IMG/VR virus record: IMGVR_UViG_2778261501_000004 | Span: 1 to 21,272 of that record | DNA length: 21,272 nt | Origin: a virus | Taxonomy: Duplodnaviria > Heunggongvirae > Uroviricota > Caudoviricetes | Strand: one strand, 5' to 3' | Shown: positions 982 through 19,914 of the stretch, one piece after another | Numbering within the stretch: the first letter of the stretch is position 1 | Layout of the letters: every line of letters begins with the position of its first letter | Position numbers and translations under genes: made by a program | The notes under the pieces: generated by a model | The model's database searches: none | What the model was told of the DNA's origin: nothing | The model's input: only the letters and a program-made list of their open reading frames with translations

Positions 982-1050
982 AAGAAAGCCCTCCGGCGCT
1001 GTATTCACCATCTTGGTGGCAAATGGTGAAAATGTAATTTTTATATAGAG

Positions 1051-1344
1051 TTAGCCAATCCTTTTCGCGGAGTGGTCGGATTCTGTTGACTCTGGCCCAA
1101 TGTGCGCGAGAGCCGGTGCGATTTGTCCCGCTTCCGGCGCTGTTTTATCTGTCATGAGCCATAGTGTGTATTTTTGGAACTGAGGTGCATTGGTGACCTG
1201 CAACACAACTTGGATGCCAGGGTCTTGATGGCCTCCTTCGTAATTCTTTAGCGTTCCTAACGCTATACCGCTGATTTCACTGAATTTTGCTTGAGTTAGC
1301 CCTTCCGATTGTCTTATTACTCTTAATTTCTGTGCGATATTCAT
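1051..1344 (-). CDS. C: Immunity repressor C, a P2-type HTH repressor of 97 aa. The ORF track extends it to 1527, but the ATG at 1344 fits the P2 C size.
   Basis: Internal Met followed by an HTH segment, MNIAQKLRVIRQSEGLTQAKFSEISGIALGTLKNYEGG. Sits next to int and is transcribed the same way as int, as in P2. Confidence 0.7.
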   Translation of the reverse strand: MNIAQKLRVIRQSEGLTQAKFSEISGIALGTLKNYEGGHQDPGIQVVLQVTNAPQFQKYTLWLMTDKTAPEAGQIAPALAHIGPESTESDHSAKRIG

Positions 1345-1479
1345 TTGACATAGTCCTGACTTAATGACTATATTCCCCGAAAAGGTCATTAATCCAGAAC
1401 CTTTTCGGGCGTGAGTCCAGCGCCGCTTAAACGGTTCCAAGCGGTTTTTAAGGGGCTGGATCCTATGAGGGTAACATAG
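1345..1479. promoter_or_regulatory. Pc/Pe lysogeny–lysis switch region. Candidate Pe has -35 TTGACA at 1345–1350 and -10 TATATT at 1369–1374. Nested inverted repeats are candidate C/Cox operators.
   Basis: TTGACA, an 18-nt spacer, then TATATT reading toward cox. One inverted repeat is TTAATGAC (1361–1368) with GTCATTAA (1385–1392). A second 10-bp inverted repeat is CCCGAAAAGG (1376–1385) with CCTTTTCGGG (1400–1409). Confidence 0.45.
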
Positions 1480-1752
1480 ATGGAAGTTAATGATTATGTG
1501 ATTAAGTACCCGCTTGATGCGGTACATGCGGAAAAGTTTGCAGATTTATTGGGTAAACCAAAAACCGCAGTTACAGAAATGATAAAGGCTAACAAGCTAC
1601 CGGTTATCGAGCTTCGAGATCCAAATAAGCCGAAGGCCCGCGCCGGTGAGAAATGGGTTTTCATTCCAGAGTTTAATCGCGCTGTACGTGAGGCGTTTTA
1701 TAACCGACCGGTTGAACAGCGTGATGCATGGCTTTTGTGGATGGGGTTGTGA
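1480..1752 (+). CDS. cox: Cox-like excisionase and transcriptional repressor of Pc.
   Basis: 90-aa protein facing away from C. Shine-Dalgarno GAGGG 8 nt upstream. The motifs KLPVIEL…DPNKPKARAGEKWVFIPEFN resemble P2 Cox (KLPVIDM…GRAGEYWVYLP). Ends …WLLWMGL like P2 Cox (WLMWLGL). Confidence 0.8.
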   Translation: MEVNDYVIKYPLDAVHAEKFADLLGKPKTAVTEMIKANKLPVIELRDPNKPKARAGEKWVFIPEFNRAVREAFYNRPVEQRDAWLLWMGL

Positions 1753-1754
1753 TT

Positions 1755-1925
1755 ATGAATGAGCCGCGTTGTATTGCTCAGTTACTGCGTAACGAAAGCC
1801 CCAGGGCGATTGACTTCACCATCACCCACGGGAAGGGACGCAAGGGAATCATTATCCGCACCAAAAAACAGAGTCCGTTAAAAAAGGCTCTGACCTTTCT
1901 GAAAAGCCGGAGGGTATGGAAATGA
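1755..1925 (+). CDS. Small hypothetical protein of 56 aa at the P2 orf78 position between cox and B.
   Basis: ATG sits 2 nt after the cox stop. Its stop TGA overlaps the B start ATG (ATGA), suggesting translational coupling. No recognisable domain. Confidence 0.4.
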   Translation: MNEPRCIAQLLRNESPRAIDFTITHGKGRKGIIIRTKKQSPLKKALTFLKSRRVWK

Positions 1926-2422
1926 CAGTGATGACGCTCAATCTCGTTGAAAAACAGCCAGCAACTATGCGCCGGATAATTGGTAAGCATCTGGCCGTCC
2001 CTCGCTGGCAGGAGACATGTGATTATTATAATCAGATGATGGAACGCGAACGGCTAACGGTTTGCTTTCATGCGCAGTTAAAACAGCGTCACGCAACGAT
2101 GCGTTTTGAAGAAATGAATGACGTCGAACGTGAACGGCTGGTTTGTGCAATTGATGAATTGCGTGGGGCATTCTCAAAACGCCGTCAGGTTGGCGCAAGT
2201 GAGTATGCATATATTAGTTTTTTAACAGTCAGTCAGCGTCGCACTTTATTTATGCACGCACGACTGACAGAAAAAGAATTTAACCAGCCATACTGGCGAA
2301 TTAATGAAGAATCATGTTACTGGCGTGATGCTTTATTCCGTGCGTTACGTGAATTATTCAGTCTGTTTGAGTATGCACCGACAATTCTGACGTCGGTAAA
2401 ACCAGAGCAATATCTGCATTAA
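1922..2422 (+). CDS. B: Replication protein B, a P2 gpB-like helicase-loading factor. The ATG at 1922 gives 166 aa; an alternative ATG is at 1916.
   Basis: Length is exactly that of P2 B (166 aa). It sits after cox. GGAGGG Shine-Dalgarno at 1908–1913. Confidence 0.75.
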   Translation: MTVMTLNLVEKQPATMRRIIGKHLAVPRWQETCDYYNQMMERERLTVCFHAQLKQRHATMRFEEMNDVERERLVCAIDELRGAFSKRRQVGASEYAYISFLTVSQRRTLFMHARLTEKEFNQPYWRINEESCYWRDALFRALRELFSLFEYAPTILTSVKPEQYLH

Positions 2423-2486
2423 ATAATTAACCAGAGTTTTTAACGCACTTAATCGTGCGGGGGCTTCTTTTTGCCTGGAGAAAGTC

Positions 2487-2711
2487 ATGCATACAGTTTC
2501 TGAAAACAAGTGCGGTAAATACGCATTACTGCTGCAACAGGCCAGAGCCGAAGCACAGGCCGACGCAGCGACACGCTTTTCTTCTCATCTTGACGCCATG
2601 ATTCGCCATATCACAAAGGCGGAGTTATCCCGCGTGGAGATAGTCGAGCTGCTCAGTCAGGAGTCGGAAAAATTTCACAATATCGGATTGTCTCGCGGGG
2701 AGGTGCTTTGA
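2487..2711 (+). CDS. Hypothetical early protein, P2 orf80-like.
   Basis: 74 aa. Shine-Dalgarno GGAGA 6 nt upstream. TGATG overlap with the next gene. Confidence 0.6.
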
Positions 2712-3010
2712 TGTCCTGTTCTAATTCAGTTGTATTACTGAATAACGCCTTAAAAATCGCCGTTATGAAAAATGGCGATTTATCTCTTATTCAACTTTGC
2801 CTTGATAAAGAAAAACGCGACATAACTGAATCTGTTATCGCGATTTATCAGAATGAATTAAACCTCCTGTCTGATGTGGTCAATTTACTTGTTAAACGCG
2901 CTGTATTCCACAAGCAAATTTCCTCAGTGGATGAACTGACAAAATTAACGACAGAACTTGCCAGTTATTGCGCTGATGTATCCAGGAAACTTAACGATAA
3001 AAGGAGCTGA
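2711..3010 (+). CDS. Hypothetical early protein, P2 orf81-like.
   Basis: 99 aa from the ATG at 2711. The track starts it at the TTG at 2708. Coupled to the upstream ORF. Confidence 0.55.
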   Translation: MSCSNSVVLLNNALKIAVMKNGDLSLIQLCLDKEKRDITESVIAIYQNELNLLSDVVNLLVKRAVFHKQISSVDELTKLTTELASYCADVSRKLNDKRS

Positions 3011-3012
3011 TA

Positions 3013-3237
3013 ATGCCGGACAACGTAGATTTTATTCAGGAACAACAGACTGAATTACTGGAGCGTCAGATTAACGCGGCAAGGGTAAAGCATTGCGGTG
3101 TTTCTGCGCTGGTTTGCGAAGAGTGTGACGCGCCAATACCTGCTGCCCGTCGTGCGGCTTATCCGTCAGCCACGCGTTGTGTTTCCTGCCAGTCAGTCTT
3201 TGAAGCAAAAAACAAACATTACCGGAGAACGGCATGA
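3013..3237 (+). CDS. TraR/DksA-family C4 zinc-finger protein, P2 orf82-like.
   Basis: CEECDAPIP…CVSCQ two-CxxC motif in a 74-aa protein. AAGGAG Shine-Dalgarno at 3001–3006. Confidence 0.7.
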   Translation: MPDNVDFIQEQQTELLERQINAARVKHCGVSALVCEECDAPIPAARRAAYPSATRCVSCQSVFEAKNKHYRRTA

Positions 3238-3509
3238 GTATTCGTATTGAAATTGGCGAACGTTATGTCGTTACCAGTGACAGCTTTCAGTTTATTCTCC
3301 ACGAGAAAAAGAGAGCGGAAAGCGGTAAAAACGCCGGTCAGGAATGGCTGTCGGTGGTTGGTTATTATCCGAAATTAAGCCAGCTCGTTTCCGGCCTGAT
3401 GCATCACGATATTCTGACCGGAAGCGCAAAGTCTTTTGCTGATTTAAACGCGCAGGTTGAGCAACTCAGCAGGCGTTGTTCAGAGGCTTTTGGCTCATAT
3501 GGCCGTTAA
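3234..3509 (+). CDS. Hypothetical early protein, P2 orf83-like.
   Basis: 91 aa. ATGA overlap with the upstream gene. GGAGA Shine-Dalgarno. Confidence 0.55.
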   Translation: MSIRIEIGERYVVTSDSFQFILHEKKRAESGKNAGQEWLSVVGYYPKLSQLVSGLMHHDILTGSAKSFADLNAQVEQLSRRCSEAFGSYGR

Positions 3510-5784
3510 AGCCTCCGGGCGTTTTGTCCCTCCGTCAGCATTTGCCGCAGGCACCGGTAAGGCGTTTACCGGTGCTTATGCATGGAACGCGCCACGCGAG
3601 GCTGTCGGGCGCGAAAGACCCCTTACACGTGACGAGATGCGTCAGGTGCAAGGTGTTTTATCCACGATTAACCGCCTGCCTTACTTTTTGCGCTCGCTGT
3701 TTACTTCACGCTATGACTACATCCGGCGCAATAAAAGCCCGGTGCACGGGTTTTATTTCCTCACATCCACTTTTCAGCGTCGTTTATGGCCGCGCATTGA
3801 GCGTGTGAATCAGCGCCATGAAATGAACACCGACGCGTCGTTGCTGTTTCTGGCAGAGCGCGACCAGTATGCGCGCCTGCCGGGGATGAATGACAAGGAG
3901 CTGAAAAAGTTTGCTGCCCGTATCTCATCGCAGCTTTTCATGATGTATGAGGAACTCTGCGATGCCTGGGTTGATGCACATGGCGAAAAAGAATCGCTGT
4001 TTACGGATGAGGCGCAGGCTCACCTCTATGGTCATGTTGCTGGCGCTGCGCGTGCTTTCAATATTTCCCCGCTTTACTGGAAAAAATACCGTAAAGGGCA
4101 GATGACCACGAGGCAGGCATATTCTGCCATTGCCCGCCTGTTTAACGATGAGTGGTGGACTCATCAGCTTAAAGGCCAGCGTATGCGCTGGCATGAGGCG
4201 TTACTGATTGCTGTCGGGGAGGTCAATAAAGACCGTTCTCCTTATGCCAGTAAACATGCCATTCGTGATGTGCGTGCGCGCCGCCAGGCAAATCTGGAAT
4301 TTCTTAAATCGTGTGACCTTGAAAACAAGGAAACCGGCGAGCGCATCGACCTTATCAGTAAGGTGATGGGCAGTATTTCTAATCCTGAAATTCGCCGGAT
4401 GGAGCTGATGAACACCATTGCCGGTATTGAGCGTTACGCCGCCGCAGAGGGTGATGTGGGGATGTTTATCACGCTGACCGCGCCGTCAAAGTATCACCCG
4501 ACACGTCAGGTCAGAAAAGGCGAAAGTAAAACCGTTCAGCTTAATCACGGCTGGAACGATGAGGCATTTAATCCAAAGGATGCGCAGCGTTATCTCTGCC
4601 GCATCTGGAGCCTGATGCGCACGGCATTCAAGGATAATGATTTACAGGTCTACGGTTTGCGTGTCGTCGAGCCACACCACGACGGAACGCCGCACTGGCA
4701 TATGATGCTTTTTTGTAATCCACGCCAGCGTAACCAGATTATCGAAATCATGCGTCGCTACGCGCTCAAAGAGGATGGAGACGAAAGAGGAGCTGCGCGA
4801 AACCGTTTTCAGGCAAAACACCTTAACCGGGGCGGTGCTGCGGGATATATCGCGAAATACATTTCAAAAAACATCGACGGCTATGCACTGGATGGTCAGC
4901 TCGATAACGACACCGGCAGGCCGCTGAAAGACACTGCAGCGGCTGTTACCGCATGGGCGTCAACGTGGCGCATCCCGCAATTTAAAACGGTTGGCCTGCC
5001 GACAATGGGGGCTTACCGTGAACTACGCAAATTGCCGCGCGGCGTCAGCATTGCTGATGAGTTTGACGAGCGCGTCGAGGCTGCACGCGCCGCCGCAGAC
5101 AGTGGTGATTTTGCGTTGTATATCAGCGCGCAGGGTGGGGCAAATGTCCCGCGCGATTGTCAGACTGTCAGGGTTGCCCGTAGCCCGTCGGATGACGTTA
5201 ACGAGTACGAGGAAGAAGTCGAGAGAGTGGTCGGCATTTACGCGCCGCATCTCGGCGCGCGTCATATTCATATCACCAGAACGACGGACTGGCGCATTGT
5301 TCCGAAAGTGCCGGTCGTTGAGCCTTTGACTTTAAAAAGCGGCATCGCCGCGCCTCGGAGTCCTGTCAATAACTGTGGAAAGCTTACCGGCGGTGATACT
5401 TCGTTACCGGCTCCCACACCTTCTGAGCACGTCGCAGCAGTGCTTAATCTGGTTGATGACGGTGTTATCGAATGGAATGACCCGGAGGTCGTGAGGGCGC
5501 TCAGGAGCGCATTAAAATACGGCCTGAGAACCTCAAACCGTCAGCAAAGAAACGGAAGCCCGTTAAAACCGCATGAAATTGCACCATCGGCCAGACTGAC
5601 CCGGTCGGAAAGAATGCAAATTACCCGTATCCGCGTTGACCTTGCTCATAACGGTATCAGGCCGCAGCGATGGGAGCTTGAGGCGCTGGCGCGTGGCGCG
5701 ACCGTAAATTATGACGGGAAAAAATTCACTTATCCGGTCGCTGATGAGTGGCCGGGATTCTCAACAGTAATGGAGTGGAAATGA
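3499..5784 (+). CDS. A: Replication initiation protein A, a rolling-circle nicking endonuclease. The ATG at 3499 gives 761 aa, the same as P2 gpA.
   Basis: Large basic protein at the gpA position. The HxH-type motif 'HWHMMLF' and the Tyr-rich 'AAGYIAKYISKNIDGY' segment fit the rolling-circle Rep superfamily. The track's ORF starts earlier at a TTG at 3457. Confidence 0.85.
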   Translation: MAVKASGRFVPPSAFAAGTGKAFTGAYAWNAPREAVGRERPLTRDEMRQVQGVLSTINRLPYFLRSLFTSRYDYIRRNKSPVHGFYFLTSTFQRRLWPRIERVNQRHEMNTDASLLFLAERDQYARLPGMNDKELKKFAARISSQLFMMYEELCDAWVDAHGEKESLFTDEAQAHLYGHVAGAARAFNISPLYWKKYRKGQMTTRQAYSAIARLFNDEWWTHQLKGQRMRWHEALLIAVGEVNKDRSPYASKHAIRDVRARRQANLEFLKSCDLENKETGERIDLISKVMGSISNPEIRRMELMNTIAGIERYAAAEGDVGMFITLTAPSKYHPTRQVRKGESKTVQLNHGWNDEAFNPKDAQRYLCRIWSLMRTAFKDNDLQVYGLRVVEPHHDGTPHWHMMLFCNPRQRNQIIEIMRRYALKEDGDERGAARNRFQAKHLNRGGAAGYIAKYISKNIDGYALDGQLDNDTGRPLKDTAAAVTAWASTWRIPQFKTVGLPTMGAYRELRKLPRGVSIADEFDERVEAARAAADSGDFALYISAQGGANVPRDCQTVRVARSPSDDVNEYEEEVERVVGIYAPHLGARHIHITRTTDWRIVPKVPVVEPLTLKSGIAAPRSPVNNCGKLTGGDTSLPAPTPSEHVAAVLNLVDDGVIEWNDPEVVRALRSALKYGLRTSNRQQRNGSPLKPHEIAPSARLTRSERMQITRIRVDLAHNGIRPQRWELEALARGATVNYDGKKFTYPVADEWPGFSTVMEWK
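5350..5369 (+). other. Putative origin of replication (nick site) inside gene A: GCGCCTCGGAGTCCTGTCAA.
   Basis: P2 ori lies inside the 3' part of A. This 20-mer matches my recollection of the P2 nick-site region. Position and memory only. Confidence 0.35.
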
Positions 5785-6227
5785 TGGCAAAAATTCACGA
5801 GGTAAAGCTGCACGCCAAATATTTTGACCTTGTGCTGGAAGGAAAGAAACGCGCAGAGTTTCGGAAAAATGACCGTAATTATGAGCGCGGGGACACGTTG
5901 ATTTTGCATGAATGGGTACAGGGTGTGTATACGGGGCGAAAGGTTGAAGCCCGGATAACAGATGTTACTGACCTGTCAGACTGGCTGGAAGATTATGTCT
6001 TGCTAAGTATTGAGCGGCTTAATACAGGCGCATATGAGATTGTGAACTGGAAAGAACTTAGTGAGCGTGGTCTGGTATTCAGAATTAATCATGAAATTAT
6101 GCATCAGCTCGGCCTTGCTGTTATGTATGAGCCGGAGACGGGGCTGTCTGGCGGGGCAGTGGTTACTGCGGATGGGATATGGAACTATTCAGATGAACAG
6201 GTGGAGCGTACAAAGCAAAACGGGTGA
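5784..6227 (+). CDS. ASCH/DUF3850 (PUA-like) domain protein.
   Basis: N-terminal segment KIHEVKLHAKYFDLVLEGKKRAEFRKNDRNYERGDTLILHEW is typical of ASCH/DUF3850. ATG overlaps the A stop (ATGATGG). GGAGT Shine-Dalgarno. Confidence 0.65.
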   Translation: MAKIHEVKLHAKYFDLVLEGKKRAEFRKNDRNYERGDTLILHEWVQGVYTGRKVEARITDVTDLSDWLEDYVLLSIERLNTGAYEIVNWKELSERGLVFRINHEIMHQLGLAVMYEPETGLSGGAVVTADGIWNYSDEQVERTKQNG

Positions 6228-6235
6228 CTTGGATA

Positions 6236-6442
6236 ATGCACAGAATACCAGGCGAGATACCGCACCATAAAACTAAAAATATCAAGCTGATGGCTATTGT
6301 TCAGCGTTTACAGCGGATTATGGTCAACGAAAATCTGACGCCCGATGAGCTGGTCGGGTGTGCCGAAATAGTCCGGGATAATTACGGGCGGTTTAACCAT
6401 ATCGGTCAATCAAGAGTTACGCCACCACCACGCAGACGATAG
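6236..6442 (+). CDS. Small hypothetical protein of about 68 aa. The start is uncertain; the alternative ATG at 6290 gives 50 aa.
   Basis: ORF directly after the ASCH gene. No strong RBS. Arg/Pro-rich tail (TPPPRRR). Confidence 0.3.
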   Translation: MHRIPGEIPHHKTKNIKLMAIVQRLQRIMVNENLTPDELVGCAEIVRDNYGRFNHIGQSRVTPPPRRR

Positions 6443-6639
6443 AGAACGCCGCCAGTCGTGAAACTTGTTTTCAGGGCTGGCGGGGTTGAACAACGAGCGA
6501 AGCGAGGCGTTAGCTAGGCTTTCTATATTGTTTACAATTAAACCTATCCAGAATTAATTGGAATTCAATTTGATCTTTTTCTCGCTACATATGGCCACAA
6601 GTACCAAAACGTGAGAACATCAAAGCTAGGCGAAATCTA

Positions 6640-6695
6640 GCTTTTCCATAGGAGTTGTTTCGTTATAATACGCGGTCGGTTTTTAGGAGGGGTCA
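6640..6695 (+). promoter_or_regulatory. Candidate sigma70 promoter and RBS for the methyltransferase: -10 TATAAT at 6664–6669 and AGGAGG at 6685–6690.
   Basis: Perfect TATAAT 26 nt upstream of a perfect AGGAGG. The -35 is weak (TTTCCA/TTCCAT region). AT-rich foreign DNA. Confidence 0.4.
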
Positions 6696-7634
6696 ATGCC
6701 AACTGTAGTGTCGCTTTTTTCCGGGTGTGGTGGTTCTGATGCAGGAGTCTTGAAGGCTGGGTTTGATGTTCTAATGGCGAATGACATTTTACCTTACGCT
6801 CGTGATGTGTATTTGGCTAACCATCCAGAAACTGATTATGTTTTGGGTGATGTCTCCACTATTGAATCGTTTCCATCTGCTGAACTGCTGGTTGGTTGCT
6901 ATCCCTGTCAAGGTTTTAGCCAAGGTGGAGTTCGAAAAGCTGATAGAAAAATTAATACGCTATACTTAGAGTTTGCAAGAGCTTTAAGAATAGTTAAGCC
7001 AAAAGCGTTCATTGTTGAAAACGTTTCTGGCATGTTGCGAAGTAACTTTGAACATTTGTTGAAAGATCAGTTCAAGGTTTTCGAAGAGGCTGGTTACAGA
7101 GTTAAATCTAAAATTCTAAATGCTTCTCATTTTGGTGTTGCTCAGGATCGTAAGCGCATTTTTATTGTTGGCATACATGAGAGATTTGGAGTTGATTTTT
7201 CGTTTCCAGTCGCGACTCATGGCGAAGGATTGAAAAGAGTGACTACTATCCGTGATGCGATAGGTTCGTTACCGGAATGGCCTGTTGGAGAGTTTTATGA
7301 TGCCGATTTCCATTGGTATTATTTATCAAGAAATCGCCGTCAGGACTGGGATCAAATCTCAAAAACCATAGTTGCTAATCCAAGGCATATGCCTTTACAT
7401 CCAATTAGTCCAACTCTTATAAAGTTAGGTCCAGATAAATGGCAATTTACATCAAATGAACGTGCACGGCGTTTTAGTTTTCGTGAGGCTGCTTATCTTC
7501 AAGGATTTAGTAATTTAGTTTTTCCTGAAACAGAGCGAGCATCCATGAATATGAAATATACAGTTGTCGGAAACGCCGTACCGCCCCCTTTATTCGAAGC
7601 GGTAGCGCGTTCATTACCTGATATTTGGGATTAA
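6696..7634 (+). CDS. DNA (cytosine-5)-methyltransferase, a compact 312-aa enzyme.
   Basis: Motif I FSGCGG, motif IV PCQGFS (catalytic Cys), motif VI ENV, motif VIII QDRKRIF, motif X GNAV. A variable target-recognition domain lies between VIII and IX. Confidence 0.9.
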   Translation: MPTVVSLFSGCGGSDAGVLKAGFDVLMANDILPYARDVYLANHPETDYVLGDVSTIESFPSAELLVGCYPCQGFSQGGVRKADRKINTLYLEFARALRIVKPKAFIVENVSGMLRSNFEHLLKDQFKVFEEAGYRVKSKILNASHFGVAQDRKRIFIVGIHERFGVDFSFPVATHGEGLKRVTTIRDAIGSLPEWPVGEFYDADFHWYYLSRNRRQDWDQISKTIVANPRHMPLHPISPTLIKLGPDKWQFTSNERARRFSFREAAYLQGFSNLVFPETERASMNMKYTVVGNAVPPPLFEAVARSLPDIWD

Positions 7635-8560
7635 CTCAACACATAATCCATAGCCACTAAGTCATCAACAAACGTTAGATTGTCTTGGTGGTTTATCTGT
7701 GGATATTTTTTAGTCAGATTTACTAGTCTAAGTCTATCAACAAATATTGCAGCACCAAAATCACTCCTGTGAGCCCAGTCGCGGTTATGCCATCTTAAAT
7801 CTTGTGGAAGAAAATAATATGTTGACCATGGATGTAAGACAGGAAGCAAATTCCACAATTTAGCCGGTGTGGCCTCAAGTTGTTTTGCTACCCATTCAGT
7901 TTTTGAACATCCACATTGAGCAAGAGCAAGAGGTATAGACTCACGATTATCTCCCATATCATGCCAAGCGAGTATATCAATTCCTCCATCTCCCCTGTCA
8001 TTTGGTTTGAAATCTTCAATTGAAAAATTAGCTTTACATCTGAAATCTTGTGCTATTTTAGTTAACTTATCAAAGAGTAAGCCAGTGTAGTGACCTGAAT
8101 TACCTGCGCTAGCCCAACAGTGTTTAACTGTTGCTCCTTCAGGCATGAGGGCTTGAAATATGGGATAGCTTATTTTCTCAAATGCACTTGTAAATATGTC
8201 ACGGTGACTATTTTCTATATATTTTATATTTGCACAGGCTAAGAGTGCTATGTATAGTTTTTCATTTTGATTGTAATCAGCAATATTATGCTTTCTTAAG
8301 AATAATGTGTCTCTGTCATCAGAAAAATAAAAGGGGTAATCATCACCGAAAAGGCTAATTCTTGTGTCAATGAATGTCGCTGCAAAATTCCATTTATCGT
8401 CAGAATACCCGCGTGACTTTGGATTTGCTTGAGACCTAAAGAGGCTTGCTAGATCTCCTCTACTAAAGCATTTGTCTGTATTTACTGTAGCCCATAACTC
8501 TAAATAGTCGCCCCATAAATATGGCTCGTTATCGGGTAATGAGTCCATGTGAAAAATCAT
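7631..8560 (-). CDS. Putative restriction or effector nuclease with an Mrr-cat-like PD-(D/E)xK core and an N-terminal domain of unknown function (309 aa).
   Basis: The C-terminal half has GDGGIDILAW…(15 aa)…LALAQCGCSK, resembling the Mrr_cat motifs (D-G-G-I-D… and Q-x-K). Its ATG overlaps the upstream ParB-like stop (TAATG). Its stop overlaps the MTase stop convergently (TTAA). Confidence 0.6.
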   Translation of the reverse strand: MIFHMDSLPDNEPYLWGDYLELWATVNTDKCFSRGDLASLFRSQANPKSRGYSDDKWNFAATFIDTRISLFGDDYPFYFSDDRDTLFLRKHNIADYNQNEKLYIALLACANIKYIENSHRDIFTSAFEKISYPIFQALMPEGATVKHCWASAGNSGHYTGLLFDKLTKIAQDFRCKANFSIEDFKPNDRGDGGIDILAWHDMGDNRESIPLALAQCGCSKTEWVAKQLEATPAKLWNLLPVLHPWSTYYFLPQDLRWHNRDWAHRSDFGAAIFVDRLRLVNLTKKYPQINHQDNLTFVDDLVAMDYVLS

Positions 8561-9639
8561 TATTCATCTTCCTCACGGATGCTTTCAATTTGTTTTTTAA
8601 TTTTACGCGCTATAGATAATATTTCACTCGAACGATATTCGTGATTTTCTGTGAAAGAGTGCGTGTTGAGAAGCATATCCCAAACAACTCTTAGTCGAGA
8701 TTCTGCTTGGTCTAGAGCTTGATCCAAAGCCTCTTCATGACCATTTGTATATAAATAGGCTTCTTCAATGTTTTTAGACTTTATGAGGTTATCTATTGCT
8801 GCTTCATTGGCAACTATTGTTGAAAGATTTTTGATCTTGCGACTTTCACCAATGATAGTATCACCCTGTTGATCTCTAACAAAGAACCAAGCAAAAAGCT
8901 TCTCAAGGTTTTCCTCTTTCAGGTTTTTAGCAGATAAATCTTTTCTATCATCTAAGCCTAACCAGTCTGTAATGTTAGTATATCCAAGAGCTGTTGTTAT
9001 GTAGGAAAAATCGACATCATTCTCACTCATATGCAAATTATAGAAGTTTTTATCAGCAGCGGTTTCATATAATTTGAGTGAAGTTAATAAAAGGCCGACG
9101 TAATAAGATTTACTGCCAATTTCTTTAGCTAATGACTTTAAAAGAGATTCTTTGTCTGCACCTTTGTAGAAAGTTTCACTAAGCTCCTTAAGATACTTAG
9201 CTTTAGAAAGTGCATCCCATTCTTTCACACCAGTAATGTGTCTATATCCGATATAACGTAACACATCTTCACGTCTTGTGTAGACGAGACAAGGTAATTT
9301 AGTCGGTTTATAAGTAGCATCGTCCTGAATTAGTTGAATGCTTTTTTCTTTTCTTTTAGGTGGTAAAAGTTCGCTATTGAGCAACTTTACGGCAGCAAGG
9401 CGACGGTTACCCTCAACTACAACATATTTTTTCCCGGAACTAACCACTAAAAGAGGTTCTCCGGGAAAGTAATCTTGTTCCCCTATGGACAGCATCAAAT
9501 CTTGTACACTTTCGTCATCAAGCATTTCTTCAATGACGGCATTTTCAGATCCAGCCCTATCGTTTAACCGATAGAAACGTGGGTTTTCAGGATCAAACTC
9601 TAGATCTTCCGTGTTTATGTATTTGATTTCGTTGCTCAT
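8560..9639 (-). CDS. ParB/Srx N-terminal-domain protein with a 250-aa helical C-terminal extension (359 aa).
   Basis: IKYINTEDLEFDPENPR…LMLSIGEQDYFPGEPLLVV…KYVVVEGNRRLAAVKLL matches the ParB-N fold signature (NPR… then GxRRxxA). First gene of a two-gene leftward operon. Confidence 0.7.
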   Translation of the reverse strand: MSNEIKYINTEDLEFDPENPRFYRLNDRAGSENAVIEEMLDDESVQDLMLSIGEQDYFPGEPLLVVSSGKKYVVVEGNRRLAAVKLLNSELLPPKRKEKSIQLIQDDATYKPTKLPCLVYTRREDVLRYIGYRHITGVKEWDALSKAKYLKELSETFYKGADKESLLKSLAKEIGSKSYYVGLLLTSLKLYETAADKNFYNLHMSENDVDFSYITTALGYTNITDWLGLDDRKDLSAKNLKEENLEKLFAWFFVRDQQGDTIIGESRKIKNLSTIVANEAAIDNLIKSKNIEEAYLYTNGHEEALDQALDQAESRLRVVWDMLLNTHSFTENHEYRSSEILSIARKIKKQIESIREEDE

Positions 9640-9830
9640 AATTGTATTCTGCGCAGATATAAGGATGACTTGCTACAGCATAACCTTATGTTTAGCATCT
9701 GTCATTATGATGGCTGCCTTATGCATGATTTTGCATCCATTTTTTATTTTATTTTTTTGGGGGCGCATTAGGCCCGATATGGTTTTTGGAGACGATGCGT
9801 TTGCATCAAAACAGCCCCATGAAGCGGGCG

Positions 9831-9849
9831 GGCGAGGCGGGGAAAGCAC
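9831..9849. other. cos site: GGCGAGGCGGGGAAAGCAC, the 19-nt cohesive-end sequence of P2.
   Basis: Matches the P2 cos 19-mer as I recall it. Lies between the cargo and the Q terminator as in P2 (…old-cos-Q). G-rich terminase-binding flanks at 9850–9990. Confidence 0.7.
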
Positions 9850-9991
9850 TGCGCGCTGGCAGTAGTGCTGATTTTATTTTTTCAGCGTCTGAGCGCGTCG
9901 TGATGGCGTTTAGATTGTGTGCCGGGGCGTTGGTTTGTCTGCGGGCTATTTTGCGCGGAGGTGAGCGTGTGAGGGCGTGATGGCGGGGTGT

Positions 9992-10013
9992 AAAAAAGCC
10001 GCCCGCAGGCGGC
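9992..10013 (-). terminator. Rho-independent terminator downstream of Q on the minus strand.
   Basis: Stem GCCGCC-CGCA-GGCGGC (9998–10013) followed on the − strand by TTTTTT (9992–9997 as AAAAAA). Confidence 0.6.
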
Positions 10014-10018
10014 GATGT

Positions 10019-11053
10019 TCAGCCGTTGTCAGTGTCCAGTGAGTAGTTTTTAAAGCGGATGACCTCCTGACCGAGCCAGCCGTTTATCTCGCGGATCCTG
10101 TCCTGTAACGGGATAAGCTCATTGCGGACAAAGACCTTTGCCACTTTCTCAATATCACCCAGCGACCCGACGTTCTCCGGCTTGCCGCCCATCAACTGAA
10201 AGGGGATGCGGTGCGCGTCCAGCAGGTCAGCGGCGCTGGCTTTTTTGATATTAAAAAAATCGTCCTTCGTTGCCACTTCACTGAGCGGGATAATTTTTAT
10301 GCCGTCGGCTTTCCCCTGTGGGGCATAGAGAAACAGATTTTTAAAGTTATTGCGGCCTTTCGACTTAACCATGTTTTCGCGAAGCATTTCGATATCGTTG
10401 CGATCCTGCACGGCATCGGTGACGTACATGATGTATCCGGCATGTGCGCCATTTTCGTAATACTTGCGGCGGAACAGCGTGGCCGACTCATTCAGCCAGG
10501 CAGAATTAAGGGCGCTCAGATATTCCGGCAGGCCGTACAACTCCTGATTGATATCCGGCTCCAGCAGGTGAAACACGGAGCCGGGCGTGAAGGCTGTCGG
10601 CTCGTTGAAGGACGGCACCCACCAGTAAACATCCTCCTCCACGCCACGGCGGGTATATTTTGCCGGTGAGGTTTCCAGTCTGATGACCTTACCGGTGGTG
10701 CTGTAACGCTTTTCCAGAAACGCATTACCGAACACCAGAAAATCCAGCACAAAGCGGCTGAAATCCTGCTGGGAAAGCCACGGATGCGGGATAAATGTCG
10801 AGGCCAGAATATTACGTTTGACGTAAATCGGTGAGCTGTGATGCACGGCAGCACGCAGGCTTTTTGCCAGACCGGTAAAGCTGACCGGTGGCTCATACCA
10901 TCTGCCGTTACTGATGCACTCGACGTAATCCAGAATGTCACGGCGGTCGAGTACCGGCACCGGCTCACCAAAGGTGAATGCCTCCATTTTCGGGGCGCTG
11001 GCGGTCATTGTTTTCACCGCTGGCTGCGGTGTTTTCCCTTTTTTCTTGCTCAT
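10019..11053 (-). CDS. Q: Portal protein Q.
   Basis: 344 aa, the same as P2 gpQ. Start ATG overlaps the P stop (TGATG). Conserved position next to cos. Confidence 0.9.
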   Translation of the reverse strand: MSKKKGKTPQPAVKTMTASAPKMEAFTFGEPVPVLDRRDILDYVECISNGRWYEPPVSFTGLAKSLRAAVHHSSPIYVKRNILASTFIPHPWLSQQDFSRFVLDFLVFGNAFLEKRYSTTGKVIRLETSPAKYTRRGVEEDVYWWVPSFNEPTAFTPGSVFHLLEPDINQELYGLPEYLSALNSAWLNESATLFRRKYYENGAHAGYIMYVTDAVQDRNDIEMLRENMVKSKGRNNFKNLFLYAPQGKADGIKIIPLSEVATKDDFFNIKKASAADLLDAHRIPFQLMGGKPENVGSLGDIEKVAKVFVRNELIPLQDRIREINGWLGQEVIRFKNYSLDTDNG

Positions 11054-12825
11054 CAGTAAAACTCCAGAATGGTGGATGTCAGCGGGGTGCTGATACCGGC
11101 GGTGAGTGGCTCATTTAACAGGGCGTGCATGGTCGCCCAGGCGAGGTCGGCGTGGCTGGCTTCCTCGCTGCGGCTGGCCTCATAGGTGGCGCTGCGTCCG
11201 CTGCTGGTCATGGTCTTGCGGATAGCCATAAACGAGCTGGTGATGTCGGTGGCGCTGACGTCATATTCCAGACAGCCACGGCGGATGACGTCTTTTGCCT
11301 TGAGCACCATTGCGGTTTTCATTTCTGGTGTGTAGCGGATATCGCGCGCGGCGGGATAGAACGAGCGCACGAGCTGGAACACGCCGACACCGAGGCCGGT
11401 GGCATCAATACCGATGTATTCGACGTTATATTTTTCGGTGAGTTTGCGGATGGATTCCGCCTGGGTGGCAAAGTCCATGCCTTTCCACTGGTGACGCTCA
11501 AGTATTCTGAATTTGCCACCGGCCACCACCGGCGGTGCCAGCACCACACATCCGGCACTGTCGCCACGGTGTGACGGGTCGTAACCAATCCATACCGGAC
11601 GGGAGCCGAACGGATTCGCGGCAAACGGCGCATAGTCTTCCCATTCTTCCAGCGTGTCGACCATGCAGCGTTGCAGCTCCTCGAACGGGAACACCGACGC
11701 CTTGTCGTCAACAAATTCACACATGAACAGGTTTTTAAAATCGTCGGCGCTGTTTTCGCGTTTGAGCTGCTCAATGTCGAACAGCGTGCAGCCACCTTTC
11801 AGGGCGTCCTCAATGGTGACAATCTGTCGCCACTGGCCGTCCGCACAGAGAAGCCCACCGGCAAGGGCGTTATGACTGACGTCGATTTCCACGCGTTCGG
11901 CGGCGCTGGCGCGTCCCCGGTTATACAGTTCACCCGACCAGAACGGGTAGGCGTCGTGCGCCAGCGTGGACGGGGTGGAGAAATAGGTCGAACGCAGGTG
12001 ACTCTGTGAGGCCATACCTGATGCCACCTTACGCAGTACCTGAAAATTCGGGATCCAGAAAATCTCGTCGACGTACAGGTCGCCGTTATGGCTCTGCGCG
12101 GTGTTGGAGTTGGTGCCGAGAAAAATCAGTTTTGCGCCGTTATTGCCCAGGACAATCGGGTCACCGGTCAGGTCAACGTCAACCAGACGGGCAAAGGCGA
12201 TGATGTATTCGCGGAACACATACGCCTGCGTTTTACTGGCCGACAGAAAAATCTGGTTATGACCGGTTTTCAGGGCGCGCAGCAGCGCCTCGCGGGAAAA
12301 ATAAAATGTCGCGCCAATCTGGCGGGATTTCAGGATATCGCGGATGCGGTGCTCAAGCCCGGCGCGATACCAGTGCAACTGATAGTCGAAAGACTGCTCA
12401 AAGAAAATCTGCTCCAGCTTTTCGATGGCCTCGTCACTGAAAAAATTCTTTTTCGGTTTGCGCCGCCCGCCTTTGTTGCGGTTAGCGACGTTCGGATTAA
12501 GGTCTGCCTCGTTGCCGGTCTGGCTGTAGCGATTTACCCGTGCCAGTCGTTCAATCTGGCGTCCCAGCAGGTCAATTTCCTTGAAGTCACCGCCGGTTTT
12601 CTGCGGTTTGATGATGAGCTGGGTCAGCCGCGCTTCCAGGCTCATTTCGACACGGCTGATGGGGGCAACGCTGTCCCAGCCGTCGCGCTGTTTCCAGCTC
12701 TGCACCGTCGGGCGTTTCATCTGCAACATGGCGGCAATCTGCGGCACGGAAAACCCCTGCCAGTACAGCAGCGCCGCCTGACGACGCGGGTCGTGTAAAA
12801 GAGTGGTGTCTGTGGTGATGGTCAT
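11053..12825 (-). CDS. P: Terminase ATPase/large subunit P.
   Basis: 590 aa from the ATG at 12825 with a GAGG Shine-Dalgarno, the same as P2 gpP. The track extends it to 12876. ATPase region LIFLGTNSNTAQS… and nuclease region present. Confidence 0.9.
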   Translation of the reverse strand: MTITTDTTLLHDPRRQAALLYWQGFSVPQIAAMLQMKRPTVQSWKQRDGWDSVAPISRVEMSLEARLTQLIIKPQKTGGDFKEIDLLGRQIERLARVNRYSQTGNEADLNPNVANRNKGGRRKPKKNFFSDEAIEKLEQIFFEQSFDYQLHWYRAGLEHRIRDILKSRQIGATFYFSREALLRALKTGHNQIFLSASKTQAYVFREYIIAFARLVDVDLTGDPIVLGNNGAKLIFLGTNSNTAQSHNGDLYVDEIFWIPNFQVLRKVASGMASQSHLRSTYFSTPSTLAHDAYPFWSGELYNRGRASAAERVEIDVSHNALAGGLLCADGQWRQIVTIEDALKGGCTLFDIEQLKRENSADDFKNLFMCEFVDDKASVFPFEELQRCMVDTLEEWEDYAPFAANPFGSRPVWIGYDPSHRGDSAGCVVLAPPVVAGGKFRILERHQWKGMDFATQAESIRKLTEKYNVEYIGIDATGLGVGVFQLVRSFYPAARDIRYTPEMKTAMVLKAKDVIRRGCLEYDVSATDITSSFMAIRKTMTSSGRSATYEASRSEEASHADLAWATMHALLNEPLTAGISTPLTSTILEFY

Positions 12826-12998
12826 GAATACCTCGCCGTGATGAATACACGGCAAGGCTACTGAGTCGCGTCCCACGATTCGCTAAGGTGCTGTTGTGTC
12901 AGTGATAAGCCATCCGGGACTGATGGCGGAGGATGCGCATCGTCGGGAAACTGATGCCGACATGTGACTCCTCTAATCACTATTCAGGACTCCTGACA
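12826..12998. promoter_or_regulatory. Divergent late-promoter region (PP leftward, PO rightward). Contains the dyad GTGA-N9-TCAC at 12964–12980.
   Basis: Intergenic region between the divergent P and O operons, as in P2. The dyad sits about 20–35 nt upstream of the O start. The Ogr-box assignment is not verified. Confidence 0.35.
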
Positions 12999-13853
12999 AT
13001 GGCAAAAAAAGTCTCAAAATTCTTTCGTATCGGCGTTGAGGGTGACACCTGTGACGGGCGTGTCATCAGTGCGCAGGATATTCAGGAAATGGCCGAAACC
13101 TTTGACCCGCGTGTCTATGGTTGCCGTATTAACCTGGAACATCTGCGCGGCATCCTGCCTGACGGTATTTTTAAGCGTTATGGCGATGTGGCCGAACTGA
13201 AGGCCGAAAAGATTGACGATGATTCGGCGCTGAAAGGCAAATGGGCGCTGTTTGCGAAAATCACCCCGACCGATGACCTTATCGCGATGAACAAGGCCGC
13301 GCAGAAGGTTTATACCTCAATGGAAATTCAGCCGAACTTTGCCAACACCGGCAAATGTTATCTGGTGGGACTGGCCGTCACCGATGACCCGGCAAGCCTC
13401 GGTACGGAATACCTGGAATTCTGCCGCACGGCAAAACACAACCCCCTGAACCGCTTCAAATTAAGCCCTGAAAACCTGATTTCAGTGGCAACGCCCGTTG
13501 AGCTGGAATTTGAAGACCTGCCTGAAACCGTGTTCACCGCCCTGACCGAAAAGGTGAAATCCATTTTTGGCCGCAAACAGGCCAGCGATGACGCCCGTCT
13601 GAATGACGTGCATGAAGCGGTGACCGCTGTCGCTGAGCATGTGCAGGAAAAGCTGAGTGCCACTGAGCAGCGCCTCGCTGAGATGGAAACCGCCTTTTCC
13701 GCACTTAAGCAGGAGGTGACTGACAGGGCGGATGAAACCAGCCAGGCATTCACCCGCCTGAAAAACAGTCTCGACCACACCGAAAGTCTGACCCAGCAGC
13801 GCCGCAGCAAGGCCACCGGCGGTGGCGGTGACGCCCTGATGACGAACTGCTGA
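12999..13853 (+). CDS. O: Capsid scaffolding protein O.
   Basis: 284 aa from the ATG at 12999, the same as P2 gpO. The track's ORF starts at 12933. Confidence 0.85.
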   Translation: MAKKVSKFFRIGVEGDTCDGRVISAQDIQEMAETFDPRVYGCRINLEHLRGILPDGIFKRYGDVAELKAEKIDDDSALKGKWALFAKITPTDDLIAMNKAAQKVYTSMEIQPNFANTGKCYLVGLAVTDDPASLGTEYLEFCRTAKHNPLNRFKLSPENLISVATPVELEFEDLPETVFTALTEKVKSIFGRKQASDDARLNDVHEAVTAVAEHVQEKLSATEQRLAEMETAFSALKQEVTDRADETSQAFTRLKNSLDHTESLTQQRRSKATGGGGDALMTNC

Positions 13854-13911
13854 CCGGCGTCAGTCAGTCCGGGAAAACCTTCACGATTAACCCTTAATTT
13901 CAGGAAAAACT

Positions 13912-14985
13912 ATGCGCCAGGAAACCCGCTTTAAATTTAATGCCTACCTGTCCCGTGTTGCCGAACTGAACGGCATCGCCGCCGGTGATGTGTCGAAAAA
14001 ATTCACCGTTGAACCGTCGGTCACCCAGACCCTGATGAACACCATGCAGGAGTCCTCTGATTTTCTGACCCGCATCAACATTGTGCCGGTCAACGAAATG
14101 AAAGGGGAAAAAATTGGTATCGGTGTCACCGGCTCCATCGCCAGCACCACCGACACCGCCGGTGGCACCGAGCGTCAGCCGAAGGACTTCTCGAAGCTGG
14201 CGTCTAACAAGTACGAATGCGACCAGATTAACTTCGATTTTTATATCCGCTACAAAACGCTTGACCTGTGGGCGCGTTATCAGGATTTCCAGCTCCGTAT
14301 CCGTAACGCCATTATCAAACGCCAGTCCCTTGATTTCATTATGGCCGGTTTTAACGGCGTGAAGCGTGCAGAAACCTCTGACCGCAGCAGCCATCCGATG
14401 CTGCAGGATGTGGCGGTCGGCTGGCTGCAGAAATACCGCAATGAAGCCCCGGCGCGTGTGATGAGTAAGGTCACTGACGAGGAAGGCCGCACCACCTCTG
14501 AGGTTATCCGCGTGGGTAAGGGCGGTGATTATGCCAGCCTTGATGCACTGGTGATGGATGCGACCAACAACCTGATTGAGCCGTGGTATCAGGAAGACCC
14601 TGACCTTGTGGTGATTGTGGGGCGTCAGTTACTGGCGGACAAGTATTTCCCCATCGTTAACAAGGAGCAGGACAACAGCGAAATGCTGGCCGCTGACGTC
14701 ATCATCAGCCAGAAACGCATCGGTAACCTGCCAGCGGTACGCGTCCCGTACTTCCCGGCGGATGCGATGCTCATCACGAAGCTGGAAAACCTGTCCATCT
14801 ACTACATGGATGACAGCCATCGCCGCGTGATTGAGGAAAACCCGAAACTCGACCGCGTGGAGAACTACGAGTCAATGAACATTGATTACGTGGTGGAAGA
14901 CTACGCCGCCGGTTGTCTGGTGGAAAAAATTAAGGTCGGTGATTTCTCCACACCGGCTAAAGCGACCGCAGAGCCGGGAGCGTAA
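13912..14985 (+). CDS. N: Major capsid protein N.
   Basis: 357 aa, the same as P2 gpN. AGGA Shine-Dalgarno. Confidence 0.9.
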   Translation: MRQETRFKFNAYLSRVAELNGIAAGDVSKKFTVEPSVTQTLMNTMQESSDFLTRINIVPVNEMKGEKIGIGVTGSIASTTDTAGGTERQPKDFSKLASNKYECDQINFDFYIRYKTLDLWARYQDFQLRIRNAIIKRQSLDFIMAGFNGVKRAETSDRSSHPMLQDVAVGWLQKYRNEAPARVMSKVTDEEGRTTSEVIRVGKGGDYASLDALVMDATNNLIEPWYQEDPDLVVIVGRQLLADKYFPIVNKEQDNSEMLAADVIISQKRIGNLPAVRVPYFPADAMLITKLENLSIYYMDDSHRRVIEENPKLDRVENYESMNIDYVVEDYAAGCLVEKIKVGDFSTPAKATAEPGA

Positions 14986-14988
14986 CCG

Positions 14989-15726
14989 ATGACGAGTCCC
15001 GCACAGCGCCACATGATGCGGGTCTCGGCAGCGATGACCGCGCAGCGGGAAGCCGCCCCGCTGCGACATGCAACTGTCTATGAGCAGATGCTGGTTAAGC
15101 TCGCCGCAGACCAGCGCACACTGAAAGCGATTTATTCAAAAGAGCTGAAGGCCGCGAAAAAACGCGAACTGCTGCCGTTCTGGTTGCCGTGGGTGAACGG
15201 CGTGCTGGAGCAGGGCAAAGGTGCACAGGATGACATTCTGATGACGGTCATGCTGTGGCGTCTGGATACCGGCGATATTGCCGGTGCGCTGGAGATTGCC
15301 CGTTATGCCCTGAAGTACGGTCTGACCATGCCGGGTAAACACCGCCGTACCCCGCCGTACATGTTCACCGAGGAGGTAGCGCTTGCGGCCATGCGCGCTC
15401 ATGCTGCCGGTGAGCCTGTGGACCCCCGCCTGCTGACGGACACCCTTGAACTGACCGCCACGGCTGATATGCCTGATGAAGTGCGCGCAAAGCTGCACAA
15501 AATCACCGGTCTGTTTCTGCGTGACGCTGGTGATGCCGCAGGGGCGCTGGCGCATCTGCAACGTGCGACACAGCTCGACTGTCAGGCAGGCGTAAAAAAA
15601 GAGATTGAACGACTGGAGCGGGAGCTGAAACCGAAGCCGGAGCCAAAAGCGGTCACCCGCGCCCCGCGTAAGATCCGGAGTGCGACACCGGCAAAACGTG
15701 GACGCCCGAAAAAGAAAGCCAGTTAA
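14989..15726 (+). CDS. M: Terminase small/endonuclease subunit M.
   Basis: 245 aa (P2 gpM 247). Starts 3 nt after the N stop. Basic C-terminal tail KRGRPKKK. Confidence 0.9.
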   Translation: MTSPAQRHMMRVSAAMTAQREAAPLRHATVYEQMLVKLAADQRTLKAIYSKELKAAKKRELLPFWLPWVNGVLEQGKGAQDDILMTVMLWRLDTGDIAGALEIARYALKYGLTMPGKHRRTPPYMFTEEVALAAMRAHAAGEPVDPRLLTDTLELTATADMPDEVRAKLHKITGLFLRDAGDAAGALAHLQRATQLDCQAGVKKEIERLERELKPKPEPKAVTRAPRKIRSATPAKRGRPKKKAS

Positions 15727-15825
15727 CAACCGAATGCGCCCCGCGCCAGGGCGGCACGCCGGTCAGTGAGGGTGAATCACCTGACACAGCACCGGCGTCC
15801 ACCGCCCGACTTTTCAGAGGTAGTC

Positions 15826-16335: not shown

Positions 16336-16538
16336 TGAAGACCTTTGCGCTACAGGGCGACACGCTCGACGCCATTTGTGTCCGGTATTACGGGCGCACT
16401 GAGGGCGTGGTTGAGACCGTGCTCGCCGCAAATCCGGGACTGGCTGAACTGGGTGCGGTGCTGCCACACGGCACCGCCGTCGAACTGCCCGACGTTCAGA
16501 CCGCGCCCGTGGCTGAAACTGTCAATCTGTGGGAGTAA
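16335..16538 (+). CDS. X: Tail protein X (LysM-like).
   Basis: 67 aa from the ATG at 16335, overlapping the L stop (TGATG), the same as P2 gpX. Confidence 0.8.
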   Translation: MKTFALQGDTLDAICVRYYGRTEGVVETVLAANPGLAELGAVLPHGTAVELPDVQTAPVAETVNLWE

Positions 16539-16541
16539 CGC

Positions 16542-17320: not shown

Positions 17321-17334
17321 ACGGAGTAAACACC

Positions 17335-19193: not shown

Positions 19194-19225
19194 TTGTGCC
19201 ATTCCTGACACCTCATCGTCACATT

Positions 19226-19247: not shown

Positions 19248-19259
19248 ATCCTTCCCGTT

Positions 19260-19832: not shown

Positions 19833-19851
19833 TGTGTTTTATTTTATCTGT

Positions 19852-19880: not shown

Positions 19881-19914
19881 GGCAACATCAACAAAACCGG
19901 AAGAGGTGCTCGCG

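Follow-up and report, generated by a model that had tools for sequence, protein, structure and literature searches.

Several restriction-modification (R-M) systems, LlaJI and BsuMI with their McrBC-like R subunits as well as CglI and NgoAVII, divide restriction between a nucleotide-dependent subunit and a separate nuclease, act on unmethylated DNA, and are encoded beside one or more C5-methyltransferase genes. These are the systems closest in presumed function to the locus described here, a cargo block at positions 6443–9830 of the IMG/VR virus record IMGVR_UViG_2778261501_000004, the whole of which (21,272 nucleotides) was analysed and is hereafter called the window. The window is a P2-like prophage, and the block carries three genes, which we designate M (a C5-cytosine DNA methyltransferase), A (a ParB-like subunit), and B (a predicted nuclease subunit). 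We put at about 0.6 the probability that M, A, and B belong together as a single restriction system, guarded by modification and with its restriction component divided between two proteins, which the P2-like prophage carries as anti-phage cargo. Whereas the nucleotide-dependent subunit of the systems named above is an McrB-like AAA+ GTPase or a superfamily 2 helicase-like ATPase, the non-nuclease subunit of the window system is of the ParB/KorB type, a fold not known to serve as a restriction subunit of this kind.

With type IIP R-M systems such as HaeIII, the window system has in common the alignment of M to M.HaeIII, the convergent arrangement of the R and M genes, the predicted PD-(D/E)xK fold, an occasional Vsr gene, and a fast-evolving R beside a slow M. 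It differs in needing, or at any rate always carrying, a second, ParB-like subunit and in that its R cassette also pairs with phosphorothioation, a pairing not known for any type IIP enzyme. GmrSD, SspE, DndI, and BrxU resemble A-B in another respect, because they couple a ParB-superfamily nucleotide-binding sensor to a defence nuclease, and SspE and DndI are in addition tied to a module that modifies the host DNA (PMC11662687), a tie comparable to the pairing of A-B with Dcm or Dnd genes. However, these enzymes are single polypeptides composed of DUF262 and a DUF1524 HNH domain, whereas A-B consists of two proteins, one from the canonical ParB branch and one with a predicted PD-(D/E)xK fold.

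M matched PF00145 with E = 3e-60 and 204.9 bits (cut-off 22) and TIGR00675 (dcm) with E = 7e-55 and 187 bits (cut-off 100.65), and its translation contains the catalytic motifs I (FSGCGG), IV ((Y)PCQ(GFS)), VI ((V)ENV(SG)), VIII (QDRKR), and X (GNAVPP). Judged by these family matches above cut-off and by the motifs, M is an intact Dcm/HaeIII-type C5-cytosine methyltransferase; the first-pass annotation of this DNA had proposed the Dcm type. Its closest solved relative is M.HaeIII, which aligns with residues 4–307 (E = 3e-46), the target-recognition region (SRNR...W...LHP) included. The target of M is probably a short GGCC-like site. An m5C mark of the HaeIII kind would be open to attack by McrBC. 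When avoidance of palindromic 4-mers was used as a hint to the target, GGCC proved somewhat rarer in the backbone than expected (59 against 99) but not in the cargo, a result that is not decisive.

The sequence of A carries the hallmarks of the ParB N-domain. The Box I-like motif FDPxNPRF (residues 15–22) and the Box II-like motif EGNRR (residues 76–80) are invariant. EGNRR aligns with the GERR box of ParB, and the P-R of Box I and the arginines of the Box II G-x-R-R are invariant. Asn19 and Asn78 occupy the positions of the Box I Gln and the Box II Glu of ParB, and Box III reads RHITG, as seen in a motif alignment and not in a structural superposition. Nucleotide binding by A is plausible from these motifs. 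The N-domain is followed by a helix-turn-helix (HTH)-like domain, as in Spo0J and KorB, and then by a helical C-terminus. The best structural matches to A are the CTP-dependent clamps ParB/Spo0J, Noc, KorB, and PadC, which match over the N-domain and the HTH domain, while the DUF262 protein DndI appeared only at Foldseek rank 33 with a probability of 0.10. A differs from these clamps in its context, with no ParA, KorA, or membrane role and a predicted nuclease as partner, and in its Box III. At E ≤ 1, neither A nor B matched GmrSD_N (PF03235, DUF262) or GmrSD_C (PF07510, DUF1524), families that were readily found in genes adjoining A-B at two other loci (L069 and L083). In its predicted architecture, a GxRR N-domain followed by an HTH domain, A resembles the canonical ParB-CTPase branch and not the DUF262/GmrSD branch. 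Homologues of A number in the hundreds to thousands, with E values down to about 1e-221. Over nearly its full length A also matched the PADLOC model PDC-M38A (715 positions) at model positions 58–356 with E = 2e-25. The length of this model points to a relative roughly twice as long as A with an unassigned C-terminal half, which B does not match; we found no literature on PDC-M38.

Because a ParB N-domain with an HTH domain is also the architecture of partition and repressor proteins, a role outside defence has to be considered, in which A and its partner would serve prophage partition, replication, or transcriptional control and M would be an epigenetic or anti-restriction methylase. Orphan methylases are indeed common anti-restriction devices of phages. 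However, the partner of A has a predicted restriction-nuclease fold. As an outcome that would count against its interpretation, the first-pass annotation had named a partition ParB of the plasmid type whose partner is not a nuclease; in the contexts inspected, no ParA-like gene was annotated or called, and the downstream partner of A was always B. The cassette is also found next to dnd operons and on chromosomal islands that have no relation to P2, and P2 integrates and is not known to need partition. A role outside defence is in our judgement highly improbable.

The predicted model of B, which is confident, comprises an N-terminal part of about 140 residues that is helical and winged-helix-like and a C-terminal part with the PD-(D/E)xK restriction-endonuclease fold. 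The fold was taken from structure prediction because B matched none of the domain and defence libraries searched (Pfam, NCBIfam, and PADLOC) and the B-family profile had no match among PDB sequences. Residues G190-D191-G192-G193-x-D195, Q215-x-G217-C218-S219, W223, and K226 are invariant in the family, and E229 is present in at least 90% of the sequences. The putative active site is unusual in that a glycine occupies the canonical lysine position and the invariant lysine lies on the next helix. B had been described in the first-pass annotation as an Mrr-cat-like nuclease. The GDGGxD motif and, in the model, the superfamily fold bear this out, but membership in Mrr_cat (PF04471) does not hold, because Pfam gave no match at E ≤ 1 and an hhalign comparison with a genuine Mrr_cat protein covered only 21 residues (GDGGID) at a probability of 21%. 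B is therefore classed, on the strength of the model, as a new family of the PD-(D/E)xK superfamily. Like A, it has hundreds to thousands of homologues (E down to about 1e-216), and an exhaustive profile search grouped the family into 1,484 clusters at 50% identity, 446 of them at E ≤ 1e-30. A-B fusions were sought in this search, and none was present among the best 150 of the 1,484 clusters, all of which are 171–379 residues long. Because M matches PF00145 and A and B each have hundreds to thousands of homologues, the three open reading frames (ORFs) are real genes and not chance ones.

An argument for joining these genes into one system is their genomic association. We surveyed 72 loci of the B family, taking one genome per species and using ORF profile searches, and sought a modification gene within 5 kb of each. 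The loci come from Proteobacteria, Campylobacterota, Bacteroidota, Chloroflexota, Acidobacteriota, Armatimonadota, and Verrucomicrobiota, and where DNA upstream of B is present, A almost always comes immediately before it. A C5-methyltransferase gene was found near B in 59 of the 72 loci, directly adjacent in 54 and at 3.2 kb in 5. The adjacent genes are mostly convergent with B; a tandem arrangement is seen in Bacteroidota, Chloroflexota, and some other groups, and the tandem enzymes belong to a second Dcm clade that is 40–45% identical to M of the window. Three loci end at contig ends, which leaves 69 informative ones, and a modification module (C5-methyltransferase or Dnd) is present in 66 of these, in most cases directly abutting. 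The predicted nuclease is thus genetically linked to a presumably cognate modification enzyme, the kind of linkage by which R-M systems are recognised.

Only three of the informative loci (L041, L042, and L072) have no modification gene within 5 kb, and they are exceptions to this linkage. The cassette of L072, from a Terracidiphilus metagenome-assembled genome (MAG), lies in a defence-island-like context with DUF2779, HerA, and SIR2_2 (positions 6101–10695 of that locus). The context of L042, from a Methylococcaceae MAG, is likewise defence-island-like, with HEPN, Uma2, HipA_2, and DUF3037 genes, and seems to have been inserted between a pair of His_biosynth (PF00977) genes. In Variovorax, Hydrogenophaga, Pelomonas, and others (L028, L031, L032, L033, and L034; about 5912–9100 in the locus), a protein of about 1,040–1,048 residues with an N6_Mtase domain (PF02384, residues 346–434) is encoded between B and the distant C5-methyltransferase, which is 40% identical to M. 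This arrangement may represent a larger composite system.

The association is also seen within Escherichia coli. Diverged triads with the same layout occur in phage Wphi (mth/orf96/orf98) and in P2-like prophages of O145 strains. Among 5,426 complete E. coli genomes, variants of A-B were found in 141 (104 of the Wphi type, 36 of the O145 type, and 1 of the window type), and the genomes carrying the methyltransferase also number 141. Outside P2, the triad is found in a chromosomal island of Methylotenera, in Dechloromonas, and in Sulfurimicrobium, and it also occurs in 186/P2-like prophages of Enterobacter. In Sulfurimicrobium (L008/L015, 7205–9522), a gene for a Vsr very-short-patch repair endonuclease directly follows the methyltransferase gene of the triad, and a PIN/MazE toxin-antitoxin pair adjoins it. 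One Enterobacter prophage with the Dcm-A-B triad (L005) encodes, at 12512–14376, a PAPS_reduct-domain protein of 336 residues and a Dam-type methylase (MethyltransfD12) beside replication gene A, while the related prophages L006 and L007 have the Dam-type methylase only.

These counts bear directly on the second of two readings offered in the first-pass annotation, namely a split GmrSD-like type IV, modification-dependent nuclease that merely sits beside an unrelated orphan methyltransferase. A ParB-superfamily domain combined with a nuclease is indeed the theme of GmrSD, SspE, and DndI, the location in a defence hotspot would suit such an enzyme, and the true GmrSD genes next to A-B in L069 and L083 could be taken in its favour. 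However, neither A nor B gives a GmrSD_N or GmrSD_C signal, the fold of A is that of canonical ParB, KorB, and Noc with DndI far down the list of matches, and B is predicted to be a PD-(D/E)xK enzyme and not an HNH enzyme. The methyltransferase accompanies A-B too regularly, both across species and in E. coli, to be an orphan, and a modification-dependent nuclease encoded so close to a working m5C methylase would be a danger to the host itself. We therefore consider this reading very unlikely.

The junctions between the genes point in the same direction as their linkage. As the first-pass annotation had described, the stop codons of M and B overlap and A and B form a coupled minus-strand operon; both features can be read directly in the sequence (Table 1). 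The identical 4-nt stop overlap was present in 18 of 46 convergent loci of other genomes, and most of the others have a gap of at most 11 nt. The tight 3'-3' junction between M and B is thus a conserved feature of the module.

In seven loci without a Dcm gene, the cassette is linked instead to dnd phosphorothioate genes, with which it is convergent in six cases; the seventh (L083) has a DndC-like gene about 3 kb from A-B. The assignment is based on DndE matches (E = 1e-29, 9e-25, 2e-25, and 3e-8), DndD-like SMC ATPases, and DndC-like PAPS reductases. In one of these loci (L071), the stop codons of B and dndE share the same 4-nt overlap as those of M and B in the window. The possibility that A itself is DndB was ruled out, because L080 (Salinibius) and L081 (Thalassotalea) encode a separate DndB (E = 5e-124 and 1e-97, respectively). 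A-B takes the position where the Dnd restriction partner would sit. It converges on dndBCDE, but is unrelated to DndF, DndG, and DndH of DndBCDE-DndFGH systems, and a ParB-plus-endonuclease pair was not found among the Dnd-associated nucleases in the main text or the supplement of PMC10853773. In two Campylobacterota MAGs (L069, 2180–7396, and L083, 2164–6727), a full GmrSD/DndI-like gene containing GmrSD_N and GmrSD_C runs in the same direction as A and extends over its start. The gene that comes after B encodes a HEPN_Swt1 protein in L069 and a protein with Mrr_cat and HARE-HTH domains in L083, and Dnd genes are nearby. These two loci look like multi-effector operons.

In the restriction system that we favour, M would methylate a short sequence, probably GGCC-like, in both lysogen and prophage DNA, and A and B together, presumably as a complex, would form the restriction component. 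A would act as a nucleotide-gated DNA loader or scanner and as the sensor of self and non-self, and B, with its predicted winged helix and PD-(D/E)xK domain, would be the nuclease that cuts DNA without the mark. Methylation would thus protect the DNA of the host, and the convergent 3'-3' junction probably couples expression of the M and A-B halves. A more specific form of this mechanism, which we put forward tentatively, is that a nucleotide-gated clamp of the canonical ParB/KorB type has been recruited to scan DNA. It would be loaded onto the DNA, slide along it, and allow its PD-(D/E)xK partner to act unless the host mark is met, and the same pair could serve m5C or phosphorothioate.

The pairing of one cassette with two chemically unrelated marks also raises another logic for the same parts. 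A-B might be a modification-sensing device like SspE or DndI that needs the self mark, m5C or phosphorothioate, to set its activity; modified self DNA would drive nucleotide turnover and release, and the nuclease would fire on unmarked foreign DNA. Such a device is a variant of the restriction system proposed here and does not contradict it. General sensing or translocation would accommodate two different marks more easily than sequence-specific site blocking. SspE and DndI, which are ParB-superfamily effectors, have an NTPase activity that is stimulated by the phosphorothioate mark (PMC11662687), and L069 and L083 place a GmrSD/DndI-like gene directly upstream of A in the same operon. On the other side, A falls outside the DUF262 branch, and the much stronger conservation of M than of A and B, together with the decay of A and B where M is kept (see below), fits plain protective modification equally well. 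No sequence feature separates the sensing logic from site-blocked restriction, and we regard sensing as rather unlikely.

The three genes evolve at different rates. Across Proteobacteria, identity to the window proteins is 61–74% for M, 38–57% for A, and 27–46% for B. The Wphi and O145 variants of E. coli show 84–85% identity in M, 65% and 30% in A, and 48% and 26% in B. M is thus the slowest, A intermediate, and B the fastest, and a slow methylase with a fast endonuclease is usual for methylase/endonuclease pairs. In a megablast comparison, similarity to Wphi- and O145-type prophages (77%) spans the methyltransferase gene and ends at the stop codon of M (query position 1191; window position 7633/7634). 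This suggests that the A-B cassette is either swapped as a module at the 3'-3' junction or evolves much faster than M. Two loci show decay: L043 has lost A together with residues 1–102 of B, L061 has a truncated A and a broken B, and M is full-length in both. This is the classic pattern of R-M decay, in which the methylase is kept and the restriction genes are lost, and it lends indirect support to the proposed system. The first of the two readings in the first-pass annotation, an R-M system in which a ParB-like protein and a nuclease share the task of restriction, is favoured by the linkage to modification modules in 66 of 69 informative loci, by this decay with M retained, and by the pairing with dndBCDE.

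Among described prophage systems, PD-lambda-5 is the one that most invites comparison, because it too is borne by an E. coli prophage and combines a protein carrying a ParB N-domain with a DNA methyltransferase. It is an experimentally validated defence system, had to be cloned in a strain deleted for the mrr-containing region, and was read by its authors as a compacted RM-like system (Vassallo et al. 2022, PMC9519451). Residues 1–152 of A matched the PADLOC PD-Lambda-5_A models with E = 1e-24, at profile positions of about 1–160 of 430–500, and the ParB N-domain is all that the two systems share. PD-lambda-5 has two genes. Its A protein, of about 450–500 residues, joins a ParB N-domain to a HEPN-like C-terminus. 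The methylase belongs to the Dam type (MethyltransfD12, PF02086, in the HHpred table of its authors). In contrast, A of the window system is 359 residues long with an HTH-like middle part, and a Pfam search detected no HEPN family in it; the system has a separate predicted PD-(D/E)xK effector that is absent from PADLOC, and its methylase is a C5 enzyme. The window system is therefore not PD-lambda-5, since it lacks both defining features, the HEPN-bearing A and the Dam-type methylase.

The likeness nevertheless suggests a mode of action of the kind proposed for PD-lambda-5, restriction-modification combined with abortive infection, in which M would have another role and A-B would be an effector that kills the infected cell on a phage cue. 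The match of the first 150 or so residues of A to the PD-Lambda-5_A models is in its favour, as are the broad protection by PD-lambda-5, which its authors call a compacted prophage system of this combined type (PMC9519451), and the many neighbours of A-B in other genomes that are of the abortive-infection or toxin-antitoxin type (HEPN, PIN/MazE, and Sir2/HerA). However, the predicted effector has a restriction-type DNase fold and not HEPN, and the near-obligate linkage to modification genes, the interchange of Dcm and Dnd, and the conserved overlapping junction would be unexpected if modification were irrelevant. We judge abortive infection improbable as the function of A-B and retain the modification-guarded restriction system as the preferred interpretation.

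The features of the block are compiled in Table 1. The first-pass annotation had drawn three ORFs in a low-GC, foreign block, and both points were confirmed: the positions of the ORFs agree, and the GC fraction is 0.387 in the block and 0.533 in the rest of the window, the flanking backbone having values of 0.52–0.57. It had also placed the block in the P2 hotspot between gene A and cos, and this location holds. NZ_AP027679 is the sole complete E. coli genome with the exact block (99.8% identity; 1 of 5,426 genomes). In this genome the left neighbours of the block are a replication endonuclease gene (gene A), a DUF3850 gene, and a hypothetical protein gene, and the right neighbours are the portal and terminase genes. 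The 19-nt sequence that we take to be the P2 cos cohesive end starts one base past the end of the block. The annotated neighbours and the cos match together indicate that the cargo occupies the interval between gene A and cos/portal. This interval is the hotspot that holds tin and old in P2 (Vassallo et al., PMC9519451), and the P2 defence hotspot was also described by Rousset et al. (PMC9122126).

Table 1. Features of the cargo block and its edges (positions in the window)
Feature	Position	Strand	Basis and remarks
Inverted repeat, 19-nt arms (84% complementary), 5-nt loop	6445–6487		Repeat search; left cargo edge, immediately past the stop codon ending the last backbone ORF (6224–6442)
Candidate expression signals of M (TATAAT 6664–6669, AGGAGG 6685–6690)	6664–6690	+	Consensus match; AGGAGG 5 nt before the ATG
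M, C5-cytosine DNA methyltransferase, 312 residues, HaeIII-like	6696–7634	+	PF00145, TIGR00675, M.HaeIII alignment, motifs
TTAA, 4-nt overlap of the convergent M and B stops	7631–7634		Read from sequence
B, predicted nuclease subunit, 309 residues	7631–8560	-	Structure model, family-invariant residues
A/B junction TAATG, shared base 8560	8560	-	Read from sequence; A and B translationally coupled
A, ParB-like subunit, 359 residues	8560–9639	-	ParB N-domain, HTH-like DNA-binding domain, C-terminal helical region
Upstream region of the A-B operon, AT-rich, ending at cos	9640–9830	-	One weak sigma-70-like candidate, ATGACA-17-TATGCT, 9705 to 9677
P2 cos cohesive-end sequence (presumed) GGCGAGGCGGGGAAAGCAC	9831–9849	+	Exact 19-nt match; 0 matches in 100 shuffles; right hotspot boundary, context only

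The left edge of the cargo is marked by an inverted repeat, a possible terminator or recombination boundary, and the drop in GC starts at this repeat. DNA similarity to other P2-like phages reaches only the first 70–90 nt or so of the block. A perfect 8-nt hairpin (AAAGCTAG...CTAGCTTT, 6622–6644) lies just 5' of the TATAAT of the methyltransferase gene. The TATAAT and AGGAGG noted before this gene in the first-pass annotation are present as consensus matches. Because a generic scan for sigma-70 promoters and terminators gave no more sites than in shuffled sequence, all promoter assignments are to be taken as consensus readings only. Word counts of the window showed a strong depletion of GATC in the backbone (1–6442 and 9831–21272), with 14 occurrences against 72 expected from trinucleotide frequencies; the cargo was not depleted (11 observed, 13.6 expected). 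CTAG occurred twice in the backbone against 5 expected. A second, milder dip in GC is present in the late region at about 19500–20300 (0.46–0.49, compared with about 0.57).

The combination of the three genes had been thought not to correspond to a named system. We likewise found no name for it, but it is not unseen. Apart from the genes mth/orf96/orf98 of phage Wphi, a supplementary table of Rousset et al. 2022 (PMC9122126) lists 'DNA_methylase + hypothetical + ParBc' among the P2 hotspot loci, with no comment. The A and B families are both represented in PHROGs. A literature search, which was made without most subscription journals, found no functional description or test of the triad; the SNIPE paper (Nature 2026) and an Asgard mobile genetic element paper mention ParB only incidentally.

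If the proposed reading is right, the triad is a widespread restriction system for which we found no description, with a nuclease family of about 1,500 clusters at 50% identity spread over many phyla. Annotation of the PADLOC type would miss it or would report only an orphan methylase and a 'ParB' gene. In E. coli, 141 of the 5,426 complete genomes (2.6%), including that of the industrial strain E. coli W, carry the system in a P2-like prophage, which may affect phage susceptibility and DNA transfer. The ParB/KorB/Noc clamp fold has known roles in segregation, in nucleoid occlusion, and in the silencing of genes, and the system, if real, would extend it to the discrimination of self and non-self. 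Should the clamp-scanner form of the mechanism also be true, it would add to restriction a class with a new mechanism, in which a clamp is the counterpart of the translocating type I and type III enzymes and of DndFGH, and it would give the ParB-CTPase fold a new role. The alternative pairing with Dcm or Dnd makes the cassette a natural experiment in the recognition of two very different DNA marks by a single reader-effector.

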